Assembly: GCF_055900595.2 (NCBI RefSeq)
Contig: NZ_CM148325.1
Reading direction: 5' to 3' (one strand)
DNA: 64,000 nucleotides
Shown here piece by piece: positions 23,999 to 42,902 of this stretch. The notes under the pieces are model-generated. The model worked only from the letters and a program-made list of their open reading frames with translations, searched no databases and had not been told where the DNA came from. Position numbers and translations under genes: made by a program. The stretch's first letter is position 1. Every line of letters starts with the position of its first letter.

Positions 23999-24702
23999 GA
24001 CTGTTCTCCATAAGCGAACTCATGGGCCATCCGCGCCCGTCGCCAGTGGCGTTTCCAGTGCTCGGTGGTTTTGACATGATTTTTGCGCACATACTTGAAG
24101 ACGTTATGCGAAAAGTCAGCGACGGAAAACGCATCACGATTCCGGCTGACAATGCCTTCCAGCGTACAGGGTTGCCCGGTTTGTGTATCCCAGGGATCGA
24201 ACGCGCCGCGCGCATTGGTCAGCGCCAGAAAATCACGTTGCCAGCTTTTTTCATCATTCCCCGGCTGCGGGCCGGAGATTTCGGGAACGCAGGGGAAATC
24301 AAACAGAGCGGCGTAAAACTGCACCTCTTCCCAGCTCAGCCACATATCCTGGCAGCGAACGGCAAACAGGTAAAAGTCCTGTTCCAGGGCGCGGTATTCA
24401 ATGGAATGAACGGCGTAGAGATTTTCACCAAACAGTTCCAGATCGCCGAGATCGTTTTTCAGCAGTTGCCAACGCTGGCGAATTTTATAAGTCCATGCCG
24501 ACTGCGTAGGCGCAGCATGGGAACGGGCAAACACGCCGTAGCGGTTAAGGCAGTTATTTTCGCCGTCGAGTTTTTCTGTATGCACCAATTGCGTGATGGC
24601 CTGTAAATCCTGCCAGTAATCGGCATTAATACGGTCATCGCTGGTGGTGCCAGGGGAGAAAGGATAATGCCAGGTTCTCCCGTATTTCCGTTGGGTATTC
24701 AT
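23995..24702 (-). CDS. Minimal Rnl-type RNA ligase (nucleotidyltransferase domain only; candidate RNA sealing enzyme)
   Basis: 235 aa; motif I KxDGxN (EKLDGEN), motif III-like LFGENLY, motif IV EGIVSR, motif V FKYVRKNH in canonical order. Confidence 0.6.
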
Positions 24703-24923
24703 AATAATCCATTATTTTGTGTGTAATAAATGTACGCCCGCGAGGGTGCGAGTTATGGGGTTAAAAGAAAAATGTGAGTATCACCCGCGAAAGCGAGGGC
24801 GAAGGAAAAAGAGAATTAACAACCTGAGCGAATGCTCAGAACCGGTTAATGGTGAATGGAAGAGTTTGGGGCGGCGAAAAGATACACCGTTTGAGATGAT
24901 AAAACAACCGTTTACAGAATGAG

Positions 24924-37775: not shown

Positions 37776-38158
37776 AATTCGGTTACTCCTTTACGAACGT
37801 TTTCGATATCGCTTTGCGTACCCATGAGTTCAAAGCGGTACAGCCACGGCACGCCGCATTTCCGGGCTATCACATCTCCGGCGCGGCCATACGCCTCACC
37901 AAAGTTGCGATTACCCGAAGCAATAACGCCGCGAAGCAACGCCCGGTTGTGCTCGTCGTTTAAAAAGCGAATTACCTGTCGTGGCACCGCGCCAGCCGTA
38001 CCGCCGCCGCCGTAAGAGGGCACGATCAGGATGTAAGGCTCGTCTACCTGAATCCGTTCCCGCTCATTGAGCGGGATGCGCACCGCGGGCAGTCCTAAAC
38101 GTTCGATAAAACGCTGCGTATTTTCGGAGCTGCTGGAAAAGTAGACGAGTTGGCTCAT
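37748..38158 (-). CDS. nrdI: Flavodoxin-like NrdI
   Basis: 136 aa; overlaps nrdE start. Confidence 0.94.
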
Positions 38159-38400
38159 GCACTGGCCGCGTGTGGCGCTGGATGCAGACGATTGATCATG
38201 TCCGGGCGGAAACCAGACCAGCTAAGATCGCCTGCAATCACTACCGGCAACTGACGAAAGCCCTGAGCACGTAACGCTTCCGCCGCTTCAGGAACGCGAT
38301 CGACATTAATCATTTCAAAATCAAAGCCCCGGTTTTCCATCGCCCGTTTGGTGGCGTGGCACTGAACGCAATCGTTACGAGTGTAAATAGTAATGCGCAT
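38155..38400 (-). CDS. nrdH: Glutaredoxin-like NrdH
   Basis: 81 aa with CVQC redox motif. Confidence 0.94.
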
Positions 38401-38608
38401 GATTCGTATTTCCGTTTAAAATGAAGATACGGCGCGATGATACGCGTCGGGTTGTCTCTCTGTTGATACAGAGATACTAGATGTAGTTGAAAAAAGATTC
38501 AACCATACAAGATATGGGAATTTTAGATTGATTACACCACCGATGAATGGCTCAACGGGGTAGGGGATTTTGTGTTTTTTTGCCGGGTGATTGCCCGGCA
38601 TCAGGAAG

Positions 38609-39040
38609 TTACATCCGCATGGAAACGGCCAGGCGGTTAAAGCAATTCATCAGCCCGATGGCAAATGTTAAGTCGCTGATTTCTGCTGCGCTGAAATGCT
38701 CAAGCAAAGGCTGATAAACGTCGTCTTCCGCATGGGTTCGGGCAATATCGGTCACCGATTCCGCCCATGCCAGCGCCGCCCGCTCGCGATCGTCAAAATG
38801 ATGGCTTACGCGCCAGCCTGCCAGGGCATCCAGCTTATGCTGCGGCACACCGGATTTGCGTAATGCTTTGCTGTGCATCTCCAGACAAAATGCGCAACCA
38901 TTGATTTGCGAGACGCGCAAATAAACTAACTCCATCAGCGTAGTTTCCAGCGTGCTATTTTCCAGCGCCGTTTTGGCCTGCACCAGCGCGTTATATACCG
39001 TTGGGCTAAGTTCGTAGTAAGGCTGACGTAATGTAGTCAT
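38609..39040 (-). CDS. Carboxymuconolactone decarboxylase-family (AhpD-like) protein
   Basis: 143 aa with AhpD core motif CxxCxxxH (CAFCLEMH). Confidence 0.7.
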   Translation of the reverse strand: MTTLRQPYYELSPTVYNALVQAKTALENSTLETTLMELVYLRVSQINGCAFCLEMHSKALRKSGVPQHKLDALAGWRVSHHFDDRERAALAWAESVTDIARTHAEDDVYQPLLEHFSAAEISDLTFAIGLMNCFNRLAVSMRM

Positions 39041-39127
39041 ACAGTTTCTCCTCTTATTAACGCCCGCAATGTAGCACTATAATGGACTGCTAAAGAGAGC
39101 CATAAATTACCTAAAAAAGCAGACCAT

Positions 39128-40462
39128 ATGCCGCGCTATCAGGATATCGCCCGTCAGTTAAAAACGGCTATTGAGCAAGGGGAACTGAAACCCGGCGCAA
39201 GGCTACCTTCAAGTCGTACCTGGTCGCAGGAACTGGGGATGTCTCGATCCACTGTCGAAAATGCGTATGCTGAGCTGGTGGCGCAAGGATGGCTGATCAG
39301 GCGGGGACAGGCTGGCACATTTGTCAGTGAGCAGATATATCCACAACAATCTACTGTACAAGTTGTGGCTTTTGCCGGTGAAAGTCAGCAACCGTTGCCA
39401 TTTCAAATGGGATTACCCGCACTCGATCTCTTTCCGCGAGAGCTGTGGGCGCGGGTGATGGGGCGTCGCCTTCGTACCCAGACGCGCTTTGATTTGGCTT
39501 TAGGCGATGTCTGCGGTGAGGCGGCGTTGCGTGAGGCAATAGTTGATTACTTACGCGTTTCACGTGGGATTGATTGTCAGCCAGAGCAGGTCTTTATCAC
39601 TCACGGTTATGCGGCCTCAATGGCTTTAATTCTGCACGCGCTGGCGAAACCGGGAAACGGGATGTGGATGGAAGATCCCGGCTTTCCACTGATTCGCCCG
39701 ATTGTCACTCGCCACGGTGTGGAAATTTTGCCTGTGCCGGTTGATGACAACGGACTGGATATCACAAGCGGAATACAAAATTATCCTGATGCGTGTTTTG
39801 CCCTGATAACACCAGCACACCAAAGCCCGCTGGGTGTGGCGCTCTCTTTAGCGCGCAGGCATCAGATACTGGAATGGGCAGAGCGTAGTCAGGCATGGAT
39901 TATTGAAGATGATTATGACAGTGAGTTTCGCTATCACGGTAAGCCGTTACCGGCGTTAAAAAGTCTCGATGCACCGCAGCGGGTAATTTATGCCGGAACA
40001 TTCAGCAAAGCACTATTTCCTGCATTGCGCTGTGCGTGGCTGGTGGTGCCGGTGAAGCAAATTGCACAATTCCGCCACCAGGCGTCACTGGCTCCATGTG
40101 CGGTACCTGTTCTATGGCAGAACACACTGGCAGACTTTCTTCGCGAGGGGCATTTCTGGCGGCATCTGAAGAAAATGCGTCAGCATTATGCTCAACGTCG
40201 GCAATGGATTGAGCAAGCGTTGACGCAGCAGGGATTTCAGGTTGTGCCGCAGAAAGGTGGTATCCAGATGGTGATCAGAATGATGGGCGATGATATTGCC
40301 CATGCGCGTAAAGCCAATGCTGCAGGCCTTGCGGTGCAGGCACTTAGCGACTGGCGTATCCGCTCAAGTGGGGAAGGTGGATTACTTCTCTCTTTTACCA
40401 ATATCGTTAACGAAGGTATGGCGCGACAGGTAGCACAACAATTACGTAAAGCCTTAAGCTAA
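39128..40462 (+). CDS. MocR-type (GntR HTH + PLP aminotransferase-like) transcriptional regulator
   Basis: 444 aa; N-terminal GntR wHTH (SSRTWSQELGMSRSTVENAY) and class I aminotransferase-like domain with candidate PLP lysine (TFSKALFP); divergent from AhpD-like gene. Confidence 0.72.
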   Translation: MPRYQDIARQLKTAIEQGELKPGARLPSSRTWSQELGMSRSTVENAYAELVAQGWLIRRGQAGTFVSEQIYPQQSTVQVVAFAGESQQPLPFQMGLPALDLFPRELWARVMGRRLRTQTRFDLALGDVCGEAALREAIVDYLRVSRGIDCQPEQVFITHGYAASMALILHALAKPGNGMWMEDPGFPLIRPIVTRHGVEILPVPVDDNGLDITSGIQNYPDACFALITPAHQSPLGVALSLARRHQILEWAERSQAWIIEDDYDSEFRYHGKPLPALKSLDAPQRVIYAGTFSKALFPALRCAWLVVPVKQIAQFRHQASLAPCAVPVLWQNTLADFLREGHFWRHLKKMRQHYAQRRQWIEQALTQQGFQVVPQKGGIQMVIRMMGDDIAHARKANAAGLAVQALSDWRIRSSGEGGLLLSFTNIVNEGMARQVAQQLRKALS

Positions 40463-40487
40463 AAAACCCCGAAATCAGGCTTCGGGG
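40461..40487 (-). terminator. Rho-independent terminator of ygaM (bidirectional with MocR gene)
   Basis: Minus strand ccccgaagcctgatttcgggg followed by tttttt. Confidence 0.75.
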
Positions 40488-40518
40488 TCAAAGACGCGTA
40501 TTTATTATCATTGTTGCA

Positions 40519-40848
40519 CTACGATTTGCGCATGCTTAACAGTGCGCCGATAAAAATACCTACCGCAGCTGCTGTACCCACGCTACACCAGGGTCTTTCA
40601 CGAACAAAAGAATCCGCGCAGCCAACGGCATCGCGCGCGGCTTGCTGGACGCGAGTACGACCATGCATTCGCGCTCTGGTTTCTTTCAGTAGAGCCTGCG
40701 CTTTACTACGAGCGGCTTCGGCTTCCCCTTTGGCGTCGCTGCCCCAGGACTTCAATACAGATTCGAGACTGTCAGCCAATTGATTGACATCATTCTGGAT
40801 ATCCTGCACGCCATCATCGACGTCGTTGCGGTTCGGTCGGTTAAACAT
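40519..40848 (-). CDS. ygaM: ElaB/YqjD-family ribosome- and membrane-associated protein YgaM
   Basis: DUF883-like 109-aa protein with C-terminal TM; track ORF extends 4 codons upstream. Confidence 0.85.
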   Translation of the reverse strand: MFNRPNRNDVDDGVQDIQNDVNQLADSLESVLKSWGSDAKGEAEAARSKAQALLKETRARMHGRTRVQQAARDAVGCADSFVRERPWCSVGTAAAVGIFIGALLSMRKS

Positions 40849-41380: not shown

Positions 41381-41830
41381 TCAGGCTTTTACCTGCTGGT
41401 AACGGCTGACTTTAAACAGTCGGCGGCAATAATCGAGGAAGTAGCCATAAACCGCCCCCATCAACATCGAAACAACGATGTTTGAACTGACCGCCGCCAT
41501 AATCTGATGCCAGTCTGCGCCCACCACTAACAAGATCGCCACATACACCGGTGACTGGAACGTCACATACGCCAGGATATCCGCCAGATTTTTTACCCAG
41601 CCCGACGGACTAACTTTGCGTGCCGCGCGCATAAACAGATCGCGGTACATACCGTATGGCCATGCAATTAAGATGTTCACCGGAATCGCTACCAATCTGG
41701 AATAAAGAGACTGTTCGAAGCTCATTCCGGAGAGGAAAACTTCAATACACATGTTCACGACAGAACAGTAAACAACCATCGCGAACGTATCTGCAACTGC
41801 ATGACGCAAGCGTGACTGCGGTGAGAACAT
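41381..41830 (-). CDS. alaE: L-alanine exporter AlaE
   Basis: 149 aa membrane protein. Confidence 0.9.
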
Positions 41831-42497
41831 GCTAATGCTCCTTAATAAAAGCGTAATGGGACGTTAATAGAGATGAAAGCAGTGGATCTCATTGCCATCT
41901 GCATTTTCGCATAGCGTATATCGCTGGCTATTACTAATCAATTAGTGAAAAATTTTTATTTAATCTGTTTTTGTAGATAAAATATTCCGTAGCGGCGCGT
42001 TTTTTGTACATTGTGGATTTTTACATGCTGATATGATTTATTTTCAATTAAATCAATTAGATATGCACTTATCTTTATTTTCACTAATGAAAGTTTGGGG
42101 GTGAGGTAACGCTATAAGCGTAGAGAGTTCGGTGTATGCAGTGACTGGGTCATTTTCAGCATTTTTTATGCCAGACAATGTACATTAACAGCAGAAAGCA
42201 CCAGTGAGTGATGTTTATTTTTATTCGTATATATTGCATTTTTATTCGATTTGGTTTTATCAGGCTTTCGGGATTAGCGAGCAGAGAGCGCCGCTCTGTT
42301 CACCAATAACCGAAATTACTCATCAAATTGGCTAATATATAATCTTGAAATTATTCTGAGAGTTTCAGAAAATAACAGCTGAAATAATCTCGTGCAGGAC
42401 TGTAAATAGATTAAATTTTGTGGAAATATAATAAGTGATCGCTTACACTACGCGACGAAATACTTTTTTGTTTTGGCGTTAAAAGGTTTTCTTTATT

Positions 42498-42902
42498 ATG
42501 TCCGTAATGTTACAAAGTTTAAATAACATTCGCACTCTCCGTGCGATGGCTCGCGAATTCTCCATTGACGTTCTTGAAGAAATGCTCGAAAAATTCAGGG
42601 TTGTCACTAAAGAAAGACGTGAAGAAGAAGAACAGCAGCAGCGTGAACTGGCAGAGCGCCAGGAAAAAATTAGCACCTGGCTGGAGCTGATGAAAGCTGA
42701 CGGAATTAATCCGGAAGAGTTACTGGGTAATAGCTCTGCTGCTGCACCACGCGCTGGTAAAAAACGCCAGCCGCGTCCGGCAAAATATAAATTCACCGAT
42801 GTTAACGGTGAAACTAAAACCTGGACCGGTCAGGGCCGTACACCGAAGCCAATCGCTCAGGCGCTGGCAGAAGGTAAATCTCTCGACGATTTCCTGATCT
42901 AA
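42498..42902 (+). CDS. stpA: H-NS paralogue StpA
   Basis: 134 aa [21 protein letters not shown]... Confidence 0.96.

Follow-up and report, generated by a model that had tools for sequence, protein, structure and literature searches.

A divergent MocR regulator and AhpD-like gene pair between nrdH and ygaM: a probable ancestral Enterobacterales module lost from most Escherichia coli

The window analyzed here (64,000 nucleotides of contig NZ_CM148325.1, assembly GCF_055900595.2; all coordinates are positions within it) carries, between nrdH and ygaM, two divergently oriented genes encoding a small AhpD-like protein of the carboxymuconolactone decarboxylase (CMD) family and a MocR-family regulator. 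The main features of the locus are as follows.

38609 to 39040, minus strand: AhpD-like/CMD-family CDS, an ORF of 143 amino acids (aa) with CAFCLEMH at residues 49 to 56
39128 to 40462, plus strand: MocR-family regulator CDS, an ORF of 444 aa
39041 to 39127: divergent intergenic spacer of 87 bp, within which lie both putative promoters and a candidate operator
38582 to 38599: GCCGGG-N6-CCCGGC, a GC-rich hairpin shortly after the stop codon of the AhpD-like gene
40465 to 40489, minus strand: intrinsic terminator hairpin of ygaM, directly 3′ of the MocR stop codon and common to K-12
38578 to 40460: segment of ~1.88 kb that is missing from K-12-type E. coli and takes in the GC-rich hairpin, both CDSs, and the spacer

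Both ORFs and their divergent arrangement are as an earlier, sequence-only reading of this DNA had described them, except that the spacer, given there as 88 bp, is 87 bp long. The AhpD-like gene lies on the nrdHIEF strand, 208 bp upstream of nrdH. The GC-rich hairpin that follows it is not a canonical terminator, since an A-run follows on the strand of the gene, and a terminator scan of positions 38380 to 40560 returned none after the AhpD-like gene; an Rfam search of positions 38300 to 40700 gave no match by E-value.

The domain content proposed from the letters alone is borne out by profile matches. The AhpD-like protein matches the Pfam CMD family (PF02627; E = 3.6e-20) and TIGR00778 ahpD_dom (52.5 bits, against a cutoff of 27.8), whereas it scores 30.2 bits against the full-length ahpD model TIGR00777 (cutoff, 191.95) and does not qualify as a canonical AhpD. 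Its closest solved structure is PA0269 (2ijc/2o4d/7xw1; E = 1e-31), and it also aligns with Atu0492 (2gmy; E = 3e-30); identity to solved homologues is ~50% for the AhpD-like protein and ~30% for the MocR protein. The cysteines of the C49-A-F-C52 motif, together with H56 and E37, align with Cys48, Cys51, His55, and Glu36 of PA0269, and C49, C52, H56, R42, Q45, and N47 are invariant in all 60 MocR-linked homologues that we compared. The five-residue proton relay of AhpD (Glu, Cys, His/Tyr, Cys, His) is nevertheless incomplete: Phe51 sits at the position of His132 in Mycobacterium tuberculosis AhpD and of Tyr50 in PA0269 (it is F in 47 and Y in 12 of the 60 homologues), and Glu37 is kept in just 38 of the 60. 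With Phe as the third relay residue and Glu37 so often replaced, peroxidase chemistry may be weak in this protein, or may not be its real function.

M. tuberculosis AhpD shares the CMD fold, the CxxC active site, and the Glu/His relay residues, but it forms trimers, has its active site toward the C terminus, and is encoded beside ahpC; here, Phe replaces the relay His and there is no ahpC neighbor, and no AhpC-type gene occurs at the locus or among the recurrent neighbors in 80 loci of relatives of the regulator. PA0269 of Pseudomonas aeruginosa, which is hexameric and for which Cys-dependent, albeit weak, reduction of H2O2 has been shown, has the same CxxC...H site and is likewise predicted to be MocR regulated (by PA0268), although PA0268 belongs to another MocR orthogroup in a 2016 survey and PA0269 retains Tyr50 at the position of Phe51. 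Going by its Pfam family and by its product name in RefSeq, the small protein would instead be a genuine gamma-carboxymuconolactone decarboxylase of aromatic catabolism. We rejected this assignment, which is extremely improbable given that the protein bears the CxxC...H signature of AhpD, absent from PcaC-type enzymes (PMC3141380), that it matches the ahpD_dom model above cutoff, and that no pca or other aromatic-pathway genes surround the pair in the window or recur among its neighbors elsewhere.

The divergently encoded protein has the features of the MocR subfamily: an N-terminal GntR winged helix-turn-helix (residues ~1 to 70; Pfam GntR, E = 1.5e-16 over residues 4 to 66), a fold-type-I aminotransferase-like domain (residues ~95 to 440; Aminotran_1_2, E = 5.8e-26) with a pyridoxal phosphate (PLP) lysine at K294, and a repeat-type operator layout (see below). 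K294, which aligns with the SK lysine K312 of GabR, and the E260-D-D-Y-D264 motif are each conserved in 81 of 81 relatives, and N425 is conserved in 80 of 80. By sequence, the protein is a member of the Spro_3719/STM2803 orthogroup, and it shares 74 to 77% identity with Citrobacter regulators of identical synteny. Both genes are under purifying selection, with dN/dS values of 0.03 to 0.17 for the AhpD-like and MocR genes alike.

The sequence-only reading had proposed looking for operator repeats in the divergent spacer, and phylogenetic footprinting identified a conserved three-box element there. Its components, and the nearby elements of transcription and translation, are listed below.

39082 to 39127, plus strand: candidate tripartite MocR operator of 46 bp, ATGGACT-N7-AGAGCCAT-N16-CAGACCAT
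39082 to 39088, plus strand: box A, ATGGACT, in the opposite orientation to boxes B and C and overlapping the last two bases of the TATAAT hexamer
39096 to 39103, plus strand: box B, AGAGCCAT, which box C repeats in the same orientation
39120 to 39127, plus strand: box C, CAGACCAT, abutting the MocR ATG at 39128
39078 to 39083, plus strand: putative −10 hexamer of the MocR gene, a perfect TATAAT with a weak −35, read by eye
39076 to 39081, minus strand: putative −10 hexamer of the AhpD-like gene, TATAGT (the reverse complement of ACTATA), read by eye and from the alignment
39048 to 39053, minus strand: Shine-Dalgarno sequence of the AhpD-like gene, GAGGAG, 7 nt before the ATG and conserved as CTCCTC in the alignment

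The boxes take the form ATGGyCT/AGrCCAT, as two direct repeats and one inverted, and their consensus (ATGGnCT-N-GCCAT-N-CCAT) retains fixed spacing from E. coli to Pseudomonas, Burkholderiales, and Bradyrhizobium; within 24 Enterobacterales sequences, there are no indels between the boxes, while the inter-box sequence varies. Reduced to ATGG-N14-CCA-N22-CAT, the pattern is present in 36 loci from gamma-, beta-, and alphaproteobacteria as a single site directly 5′ of the MocR gene, with one off-site match in ~0.85 Mb (~1.6 chance matches would be expected across all of the DNA of the loci); in the 64-kb window, it matches twice, with 0.12 matches expected. The whole 87-bp spacer is 100% identical in the O157:H7 and Nissle 1917 alleles, even though the flanking CDSs are 90 to 98% identical (dS, 0.06 to 0.42). 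A generic repeat finder applied to the spacer returned just two copies of AATGTAG and a CATATG palindrome, missing the operator because its boxes are merely 4 to 7 nt long and require phylogenetic footprinting. Similarly, a consensus promoter scan of positions 38380 to 40560 (threshold, 9/12) returned no sigma-70 site in the spacer, such that the promoter elements are by-eye readings that draw their support from conservation; CACTAT(A/G)ATGG is conserved across the Enterobacteriaceae at the MocR −10 region. If the leftward AhpD-like promoter is positioned as we infer, box B would occupy its −35 location.

The nrdH-ygaM interval had been described as empty in K-12, and this is the case: in MG1655, the gap is 247 bp and contains neither gene. 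Homology between K-12 and the window stops at around 38515 to 38577 and picks up at 40461. We compared the K-12 spacer by local alignment (global alignment with cheap gaps scattered it meaninglessly), and by this method the stretch that follows the AhpD-like gene survives in K-12 as a diverged remnant. On the right, the K-12 deletion has its edge at the ygaM terminator hairpin. In comparisons of loci, the order nrdH-pair-ygaM recurs in Escherichia albertii, Citrobacter, Kluyvera, Pseudocitrobacter, and Pseudescherichia and also in Cedecea, Enterobacter, Pluralibacter, and Rahnella. This shared position across genera indicates that the pair is ancestral and that K-12 carries a deletion of ~1.9 kb. 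Among 5,426 complete E. coli genomes, 1,276 (~24%) contain the pair at ≥80% query coverage and 1,387 contain some part of it, with a regulator-truncated allele present in up to 111; one such natural allele has a 589-bp deletion in the N-terminal part of the regulator. The intact pair is found in Nissle 1917, ST95, strain 042, and O157:H7, and its clean deletion in K-12 and ST131.

Patchiness of this kind would also be produced if the minority (~24%) of E. coli genomes that have the pair had gained it horizontally, as an islet at the nrdH-ygaM junction, and its mosaic alleles, which diverge by 3 to 9% in nucleotide sequence, could be read in the same way. Such an origin is very improbable, however, and we rejected it on the grounds that position and orientation are the same in at least nine further genera, among them Rahnella, a member of the Yersiniaceae, and that protein identity follows taxonomy (91% in E. 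albertii, 74 to 77% in Citrobacter, and 62 to 71% in other Enterobacteriaceae). Moreover, the GC content of the pair (0.49 to 0.54) resembles that of its flanks, no mobility genes, integrase, insertion sequences, or repeat boundaries were found at the pair, and the remnant 3′ of the AhpD-like gene persists in K-12. As such, the comparative evidence is that the pair is patchy in E. coli through loss and not gain, and the best explanation for its absence from K-12 and ~75% of E. coli is loss of the module by a clean ~1.9-kb deletion. Its earlier description as accessory thus holds insofar as it is variable in E. coli, but the pair was lost rather than acquired and is ancestral in the Enterobacterales. 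Repeated loss or decay in E. coli argues that its function is dispensable in many niches.

The conserved position next to nrdHIEF raises the question of whether the AhpD-like protein works with the nrd system, either as redox partner to NrdH, which like it is a CxxC redox protein, or through read-through cotranscription, which would account for where the gene lies. Its orientation on the nrdHIEF strand, its distance of only 208 bp from nrdH with no canonical terminator between, and the conservation of the neighborhood in the Enterobacterales are all compatible with such coupling, but the pair has no nrd neighbors at any non-Enterobacterales locus, which led us to reject it. Furthermore, K-12 nrdHIEF functions without the pair, and the nrdH promoter region (38401 to 38515) is 98% identical (113/115) whether or not the pair is present. 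We therefore hold functional coupling to be hardly likely; the adjacency to nrdHIEF, which the sequence-only reading had called oxidative-stress linked, is real in the Enterobacterales, but it is a matter of synteny, and elsewhere the pair never lies beside nrd genes.

What does travel with the regulator is the AhpD-like gene itself. Among 80 loci of regulator relatives, 64 have an AhpD-like gene within 5 kb; in 34 of these, the two genes are divergent and adjacent, in 15 they are divergent with GNAT acetyltransferase and/or azoreductase genes between them, and in 13 the AhpD-like gene is downstream on the same strand. The remaining 16 of the 80 loci have no nearby AhpD-like gene. An FMN azoreductase-like gene occurs in 34 loci and a GNAT acetyltransferase gene in 21. 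When distant representatives of the AhpD-like protein were taken as the starting point, one of three contigs showed MocR, GNAT, flavodoxin-like, and CMD genes together, the other two contigs being shorter than 2 kb. Co-occurrence of the pair in other genomes, which the sequence-only reading had left to be checked, is therefore extensive, and together with the conserved three-box element it backs the earlier view of the pair as a regulator and its target.

The same loci bear on the identity of the regulator, which could be a true PdxR, responding to PLP and governing genes for the synthesis or salvage of vitamin B6, with the AhpD-like gene a mere bystander. The protein scores 405.9 bits against the NCBIfam PdxR equivalog NF052282 (cutoff, 320), PGAP calls the gene pdxR in some genomes, and the best solved relative is Bacillus clausii PdxR (7pq9; E = 2e-63). 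In addition, the position of GabR Arg430 is the invariant Asn425 here and Ser in PdxR, and with no Arg at this position, PLP alone could be the ligand. Even so, this identity is quite unlikely, and we rejected it because the gene context lacks B6 genes and has an AhpD-like neighbor in 64 of 80 loci: neither pdxS/pdxT nor B6 salvage genes occur near the pair in the window or among the recurrent neighbors in the 80 loci, and the operator occupies the spacer that separates the regulator from the AhpD-like gene and accompanies the latter across classes. As general background, E. coli synthesizes PLP by the DXP-dependent route and, to our knowledge, is without pdxST. The 2016 survey also puts the Spro_3719 group apart from the PdxR groups. 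B. clausii PdxR remains informative as a comparison: it has the same domain architecture, likewise has no Arg at the GabR Arg430 position, and binds a ~48-bp target that lies in a divergent spacer and combines two direct repeats with an inverted one (NAR 2023), but it controls pdxST and recognizes other box sequences.

A catalogue from 2016 already contains the orthologous regulon: Suvorova and Rodionov (PMC5320631, supplement) listed STM2803, CKO_04020, KPN_03002, and Spro_3719 as regulating COG2128 and PFL_2191 as regulating COG2128, AcpD, and GNAT. That survey counted 53 predicted regulons with MocR–AhpD-like pairs, catalogued MocR-COG2128 pairings of similar type in the Actinobacteria, and found two direct boxes plus one inverted box to be the commonest MocR motif (PMC5320631). 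The Spro_3719/STM2803 group matches the present pair in regulator orthogroup, in its AhpD-like (COG2128) target, and in chromosomal position, which our loci show for nine other genera and which for Salmonella rests on STM2804 being ~5 kb from stpA; the GNAT and AcpD/azoreductase members in Pseudomonas likewise match the neighbors in our loci. The sole E. coli analyzed in the survey, however, was K-12, which is without the pair, and the group appears in supplementary tables with no functional discussion. Our literature search found no experimental study of a MocR regulator with a carboxymuconolactone decarboxylase, AhpD, or azoreductase, or of these locus tags; STM2804 appears solely as a marker-insertion site of “no known function.”

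Taken together, these data make it probable that the pair is a self-contained, ancestral Enterobacterales regulator-target module, consisting of MocR and the AhpD-like protein, that has been lost in most E. coli; the AhpD-like protein is most likely a small thiol-redox protein controlled by the MocR regulator. Bacillus subtilis GabR offers a mechanistic precedent, in that it too belongs to the MocR family, regulates a divergent operon, and conserves the PLP lysine, although it has Arg where the present protein has the invariant Asn425. The GabR site, composed of two direct ATACCA repeats, overlaps its own promoter and the −35 of the promoter of its target, gabTD, and Arg430 and Arg207 bind the GABA carboxylate.

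Here, a head-to-tail MocR dimer most likely binds the 46-bp three-box operator. So placed, it would cover the −10 of the regulator's own promoter and abut its start codon, and it would span roughly −13 to −58 of the divergent AhpD-like promoter. By analogy with GabR and PdxR, MocR would repress its own gene, and a change in the state of its PLP site would cause it to switch between box combinations, turning the divergent gene on or off. The target would be a PA0269-type AhpD-like protein, probably a hexamer, whose invariant Cys-x-x-Cys...His site could reduce a peroxide, a disulfide, or an electrophile adduct in a thiol-dependent manner. Elsewhere in the Proteobacteria, this regulator would additionally control a GNAT acetyltransferase and a reductase that is FMN dependent and azoreductase-like, and these co-targets point to a role in detoxification or redox stress.

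A broader possibility, which we raise tentatively and consider rather unlikely, is that MocR and the AhpD-like protein, with the azoreductase-like and GNAT proteins, form a Proteobacteria-wide stress regulon in which the PLP of the regulator chemically senses either a non-carboxylate amine or a toxin reactive toward carbonyls (e.g., an arylamine, a hydroxylamine, a hydrazine, or an aminooxy compound), whereupon the regulator would induce a detoxification route of reduction, acetylation, and re-reduction. Such a regulon would fit both the Asn found invariantly where GabR has Arg430 and the repeated presence of reductase and acetyltransferase partners, although neither demonstrates it. If true, MocR regulators would gain a new class of effector, and PA0269-type AhpD-like proteins a physiological role.

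The name “PdxR, pyridoxine biosynthesis regulator,” which automated annotation is spreading through RefSeq E. coli records, is probably misassigned for this MocR orthogroup. The biological importance of the locus is modest, but it gives clean and testable access to an orphan regulon, for which the natural E. coli genotypes (intact, regulator truncated, and deleted) are ready test strains. As an example for pan-genome analysis, this seemingly “strain-specific” pair in E. coli is really an ancestral core locus in the process of being lost.

The divergent genes between nrdH and ygaM constitute an annotated, previously catalogued MocR-AhpD-like module and, in that sense, an ordinary one. The six-frame ORF list reproduces both reading frames of the sequence-only reading, which had the spacer's coordinates right and its length one base too long (88 bp):

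38155-38400, minus strand: nrdH, left neighbor of the pair
38609-39040, minus strand: AhpD-like coding sequence, 143 aa
39041-39127: divergent spacer, 87 bp
39128-40462, plus strand: MocR-type regulator coding sequence, 444 aa
40519-40860, minus strand: ygaM, right neighbor of the pair

Its family assignments, a carboxymuconolactone decarboxylase (CMD) protein with a redox motif and a GntR-aminotransferase fusion, agree with the Pfam and NCBIfam matches. The smaller protein matches Pfam CMD (PF02627, E=3.6e-20), scores 52.5 bits against the NCBIfam "AhpD family core domain" (cutoff, 27.8), and carries C49-A-F-C52-L-E-M-H56; the larger combines a GntR wHTH (E=1.5e-16) with an Aminotran_1_2 domain (E=5.8e-26).

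Scanning the MocR protein against one genome per species yielded 79 loci, to which O157:H7 was added for a co-occurrence set of 80. An AhpD-like homologue lies within 5 kb of the MocR gene in 64/80 loci: divergent and adjacent in 34, divergent with one or two genes between in 15, downstream on the same strand in 13, and convergent in 2 (the other 16 have none within 5 kb). The intervening genes encode a GNAT acetyltransferase and an FMN-dependent NADH-azoreductase-like flavoprotein, and when neighboring ORFs were clustered, 59 loci had the AhpD-like gene, 34 the azoreductase-like gene, and 21 the GNAT gene. An independent look-up from a 59%-identical AhpD-like protein, based on precomputed Pfam labels, likewise places MocR divergent from GNAT, Flavodoxin_2, and CMD genes. 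Outside the Enterobacteriaceae, the usual divergent operon runs GNAT acetyltransferase, FMN azoreductase-like flavoprotein, AhpD-like gene, as seen in five Pseudomonas loci (L021, L022, L024, L027, and L039) and in six other fetched loci (L023, L038, L072, L074, L078, and L084); in the Enterobacteriaceae, the AhpD-like gene is the sole operon member retained.

Alignment of the spacers from 24 Enterobacterales loci reveals three near-invariant blocks, with zero indels between them and a variable remainder. Box A repeats, in inverted orientation, the motif that boxes B and C share as direct repeats; two candidate promoter elements are listed with them:

39081-39076, read leftward: TATAGT before the AhpD-like gene, putative promoter element
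39078-39083: perfect TATAAT, overlapped by box A, putative promoter element
39082-39088: box A, ATGGnCT
39096-39103: box B, AGnGCCAT
39120-39127: box C, CAGnCCAT, abutting the regulator ATG

Box B would occupy the place of the -35 element of the AhpD-like promoter; a simple consensus promoter scan of the spacer found no promoter. The skeleton ATGG-N14-CCA-N22-CAT has two matches in the 64-kb window versus 0.12 expected. The second (24667-24712, minus strand), without the extended box consensus, probably arose by chance. Of all fetched loci, 36 have a single skeleton match, always at the same spot directly 5' of the MocR gene; off-site, only 1 match was found in ~0.85 Mb. These loci include Pseudomonas, Collimonas, Herminiimonas, Burkholderia, Bradyrhizobium, and Sphingomonas, as well as Rhodospirillaceae and Moraxellaceae MAGs, giving the cross-class consensus ATGGCCTA-N6-AGrGCCAw-N16-TAGGCCATGA; a further handful of loci have one-base spacing variants or box variants. 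The operator is also present in three loci without the AhpD-like gene (L071, strict pattern; L052 and L063, one-base spacing variant), the latter two of which keep the azoreductase-like gene.

In a regulon survey (PMC5320631), the commonest MocR motif structure combines two direct boxes with an inverted one, and the 48-bp site of Bacillus clausii PdxR, whose holo-protein clamps the outer two, inverted boxes, has the same arrangement. The three-box layout is in keeping with the family and is that of a standard MocR operator. Operator conservation and the 64/80 co-occurrence support the proposal that the divergent genes are regulator and target.

Within E. coli, the pair is present in a minority of genomes. 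A megablast search of 5,426 complete E. coli genomes with the junction as query found the flanks in 5,421 and the pair (≥80% query coverage) in only 1,276; queried alone, the pair matches 1,387 genomes, 1,276 of them in full. Carriers include O157:H7, Nissle 1917, ST95/APEC O1:K1:H7, and strain 042; K-12, ATCC 8739, and ST131 lack it. The idea that the pair might be shared by K-12 and most E. coli is therefore wrong, and the interval described as empty in K-12 is indeed a gene-free 247 bp from nrdH to ygaM in MG1655. Identity to the window separates three allele classes: ≥99% (n=14), ~97% (n=~1,000), and ~91% (n=365, mostly O157:H7).

Comparison of the junction across genera points to loss, not gain. 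When the window NrdI, NrdH, AhpD-like, MocR, YgaM, and YgaC proteins were mapped onto the 79 loci by tblastn, the order nrdI-nrdH-[AhpD-like]-[MocR]-ygaM-ygaC was recovered in E. albertii, Pseudocitrobacter, Pseudescherichia, Cedecea, Enterobacter spp., Pluralibacter, and even Rahnella; Citrobacter matches this order minus ygaM, and in Kluyvera the pair adjoins ygaM-ygaC. MocR identity to the window protein drops with taxonomic distance (E. albertii, 91%; Citrobacter, 74 to 77%; other Enterobacteriaceae, 62 to 71%), and a homologue search found AhpD-like proteins at 83 to 85% identity in Salmonella and 78 to 82% in Klebsiella aerogenes, Raoultella, Kluyvera, and Scandinavium. In GC content (0.49 to 0.54), the pair resembles its flanks, and a search around the pair in the window found no mobility genes or boundary repeats. 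K-12 keeps a diverged version of the ~60 bp 3' of the AhpD-like gene (window 38516-38577), after which homology resumes at the ygaM terminator (window 40461); K-12 has therefore undergone a ~1.88-kb deletion removing exactly both genes. The pair is ancestral in Enterobacterales and in the process of being lost in E. coli.

Partial matches to the pair occur in up to 111 complete E. coli genomes, and the five listed all have 68% coverage. One such allele, flagged by RefSeq as a pseudogene, has a 589-bp deletion from the MocR start codon (window 39128-39717) that eliminates residues 1-197, including the wHTH; in this locus (L082, 1233-1400), boxes A and B are untouched, as is the AhpD-like gene. 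Partial alleles look like natural regulator nulls and like a second, independent decay route beside the K-12-type full deletion.

Where retained, both genes are under purifying-range dN/dS values (pairwise among the window, O157:H7, Nissle, another E. coli, and E. albertii): 0.03 to 0.08 for the AhpD-like gene and 0.07 to 0.17 for the regulator. The dS between E. coli alleles is large, up to 0.48; among the loci compared (L002, O157:H7; L083, Nissle; and two others, L019 and L003), the alleles are unusually divergent, with dS nearing the E. coli-E. albertii range (0.50 to 0.74). Alleles are also mosaic: between the window and Nissle, the regulator is close (dS 0.06) and the AhpD-like gene distant (dS 0.30). 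Despite this coding divergence, the window, O157:H7, and Nissle share the 87-bp spacer without a single difference (100% identity), in keeping with a strongly constrained regulatory DNA; recombination may also play a part.

The module's relatives appear in the MocR regulon reconstruction of Suvorova and Rodionov (Microb Genom 2016; PMC5320631), in whose supplementary table every member of the orthogroup "Spro_3719 - Enterobacteriales" regulates COG2128: CKO_04020 (Citrobacter koseri), Enterobacter 638, ECA2654 (Pectobacterium), KPN_03002 (Klebsiella), STM2803 (Salmonella), and Spro_3719 (Serratia). The same source assigns COG2128 to 53 regulons, has a sister group "PA0268" regulating PA0269, and lists Pseudomonas fluorescens PFL_2191 as regulating COG2128, COG1182 (AcpD), and PF00583, exactly the AhpD-like/azoreductase-like/GNAT content found here. 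There, K-12 (two MocR genes, b4340/YjiR being named) is the only E. coli analyzed, which explains why the window's member is missing from the tables, and the main text does not discuss the Spro_3719 group. Our literature searches for MocR paired with AhpD or azoreductase returned only this survey, and those for experimental work on a Spro_3719-type pair returned none; the only use of STM2804 found was as a neutral insertion site of "no known function" (PMC3723669).

RefSeq names the regulator inconsistently, as "PLP-dependent aminotransferase family protein" or "pdxR ... pyridoxine biosynthesis transcription factor PdxR," the latter because it scores 405.9 against the NCBIfam PdxR equivalog (NF052282; cutoff, 320). 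Linkage to pdxST or salvage genes, which defines PdxR, is absent at the window pair and from the clustered neighbors in 80 relatives' loci; we therefore do not file the regulator as PdxR. It may be PdxR-like in mechanics, and NF052282 seems to reach too far, taking in this AhpD-linked orthogroup.

Across 60 MocR-linked AhpD-like proteins, R42, Q45, N47, C49, C52, and H56 never vary (60/60); Phe occupies position 51 in 47 of them and Tyr in 12, and just 38 retain Glu37. Of the solved structures, P. aeruginosa PA0269 comes closest (E=1e-31); it forms a hexamer, reduces H2O2 weakly in a cysteine-dependent manner, and has a Glu36/Cys48/Tyr50/Cys51/His55 relay (PMC3141380). By this comparison, the window protein shares four relay residues out of five, Phe standing in for Tyr/His. 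The regulator's PLP lysine K294 and EDDYD motif do not vary among 81 relatives, and Asn425 (window 40400-40402) is likewise invariant in 80/80. Asn425 aligns to GabR Arg430 (Ser in B. clausii PdxR), the aminotransferase carboxylate-binding Arg that, with Arg207, binds the GABA carboxylate; Pro187/Leu188 align to Arg207. As a lead, the Asn hints at an effector that may be neither GABA-like nor an alpha-amino acid; a non-carboxylate amine, or PLP alone, could be what is sensed.

On the minus strand, no canonical intrinsic terminator was found from the AhpD-like stop codon to the nrdH promoter region (38401-38608), and transcription may therefore run on from the AhpD-like gene into nrdHIEF. A GC-rich hairpin at 38582-38599, absent from K-12, has an A-run after it on the minus strand and a T-run before it on the plus strand. 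Separately, GC falls to 0.34 to 0.36 at 41800-42600, in the long intergenic region 5' of stpA (42498-42902), as is typical of AT-rich DNA bound by H-NS/StpA; this stretch has no relation to the pair.

Taken jointly, the gene identities and the regulatory link are quite probable, and our confidence in any specific physiological signal is low. Most likely, the regulator would repress its own gene, and effector-dependent switching between box pairs would control the AhpD-like gene, whose product is a putative CxxC thiol oxidoreductase that, in other Proteobacteria, would belong to a detoxification or redox set.
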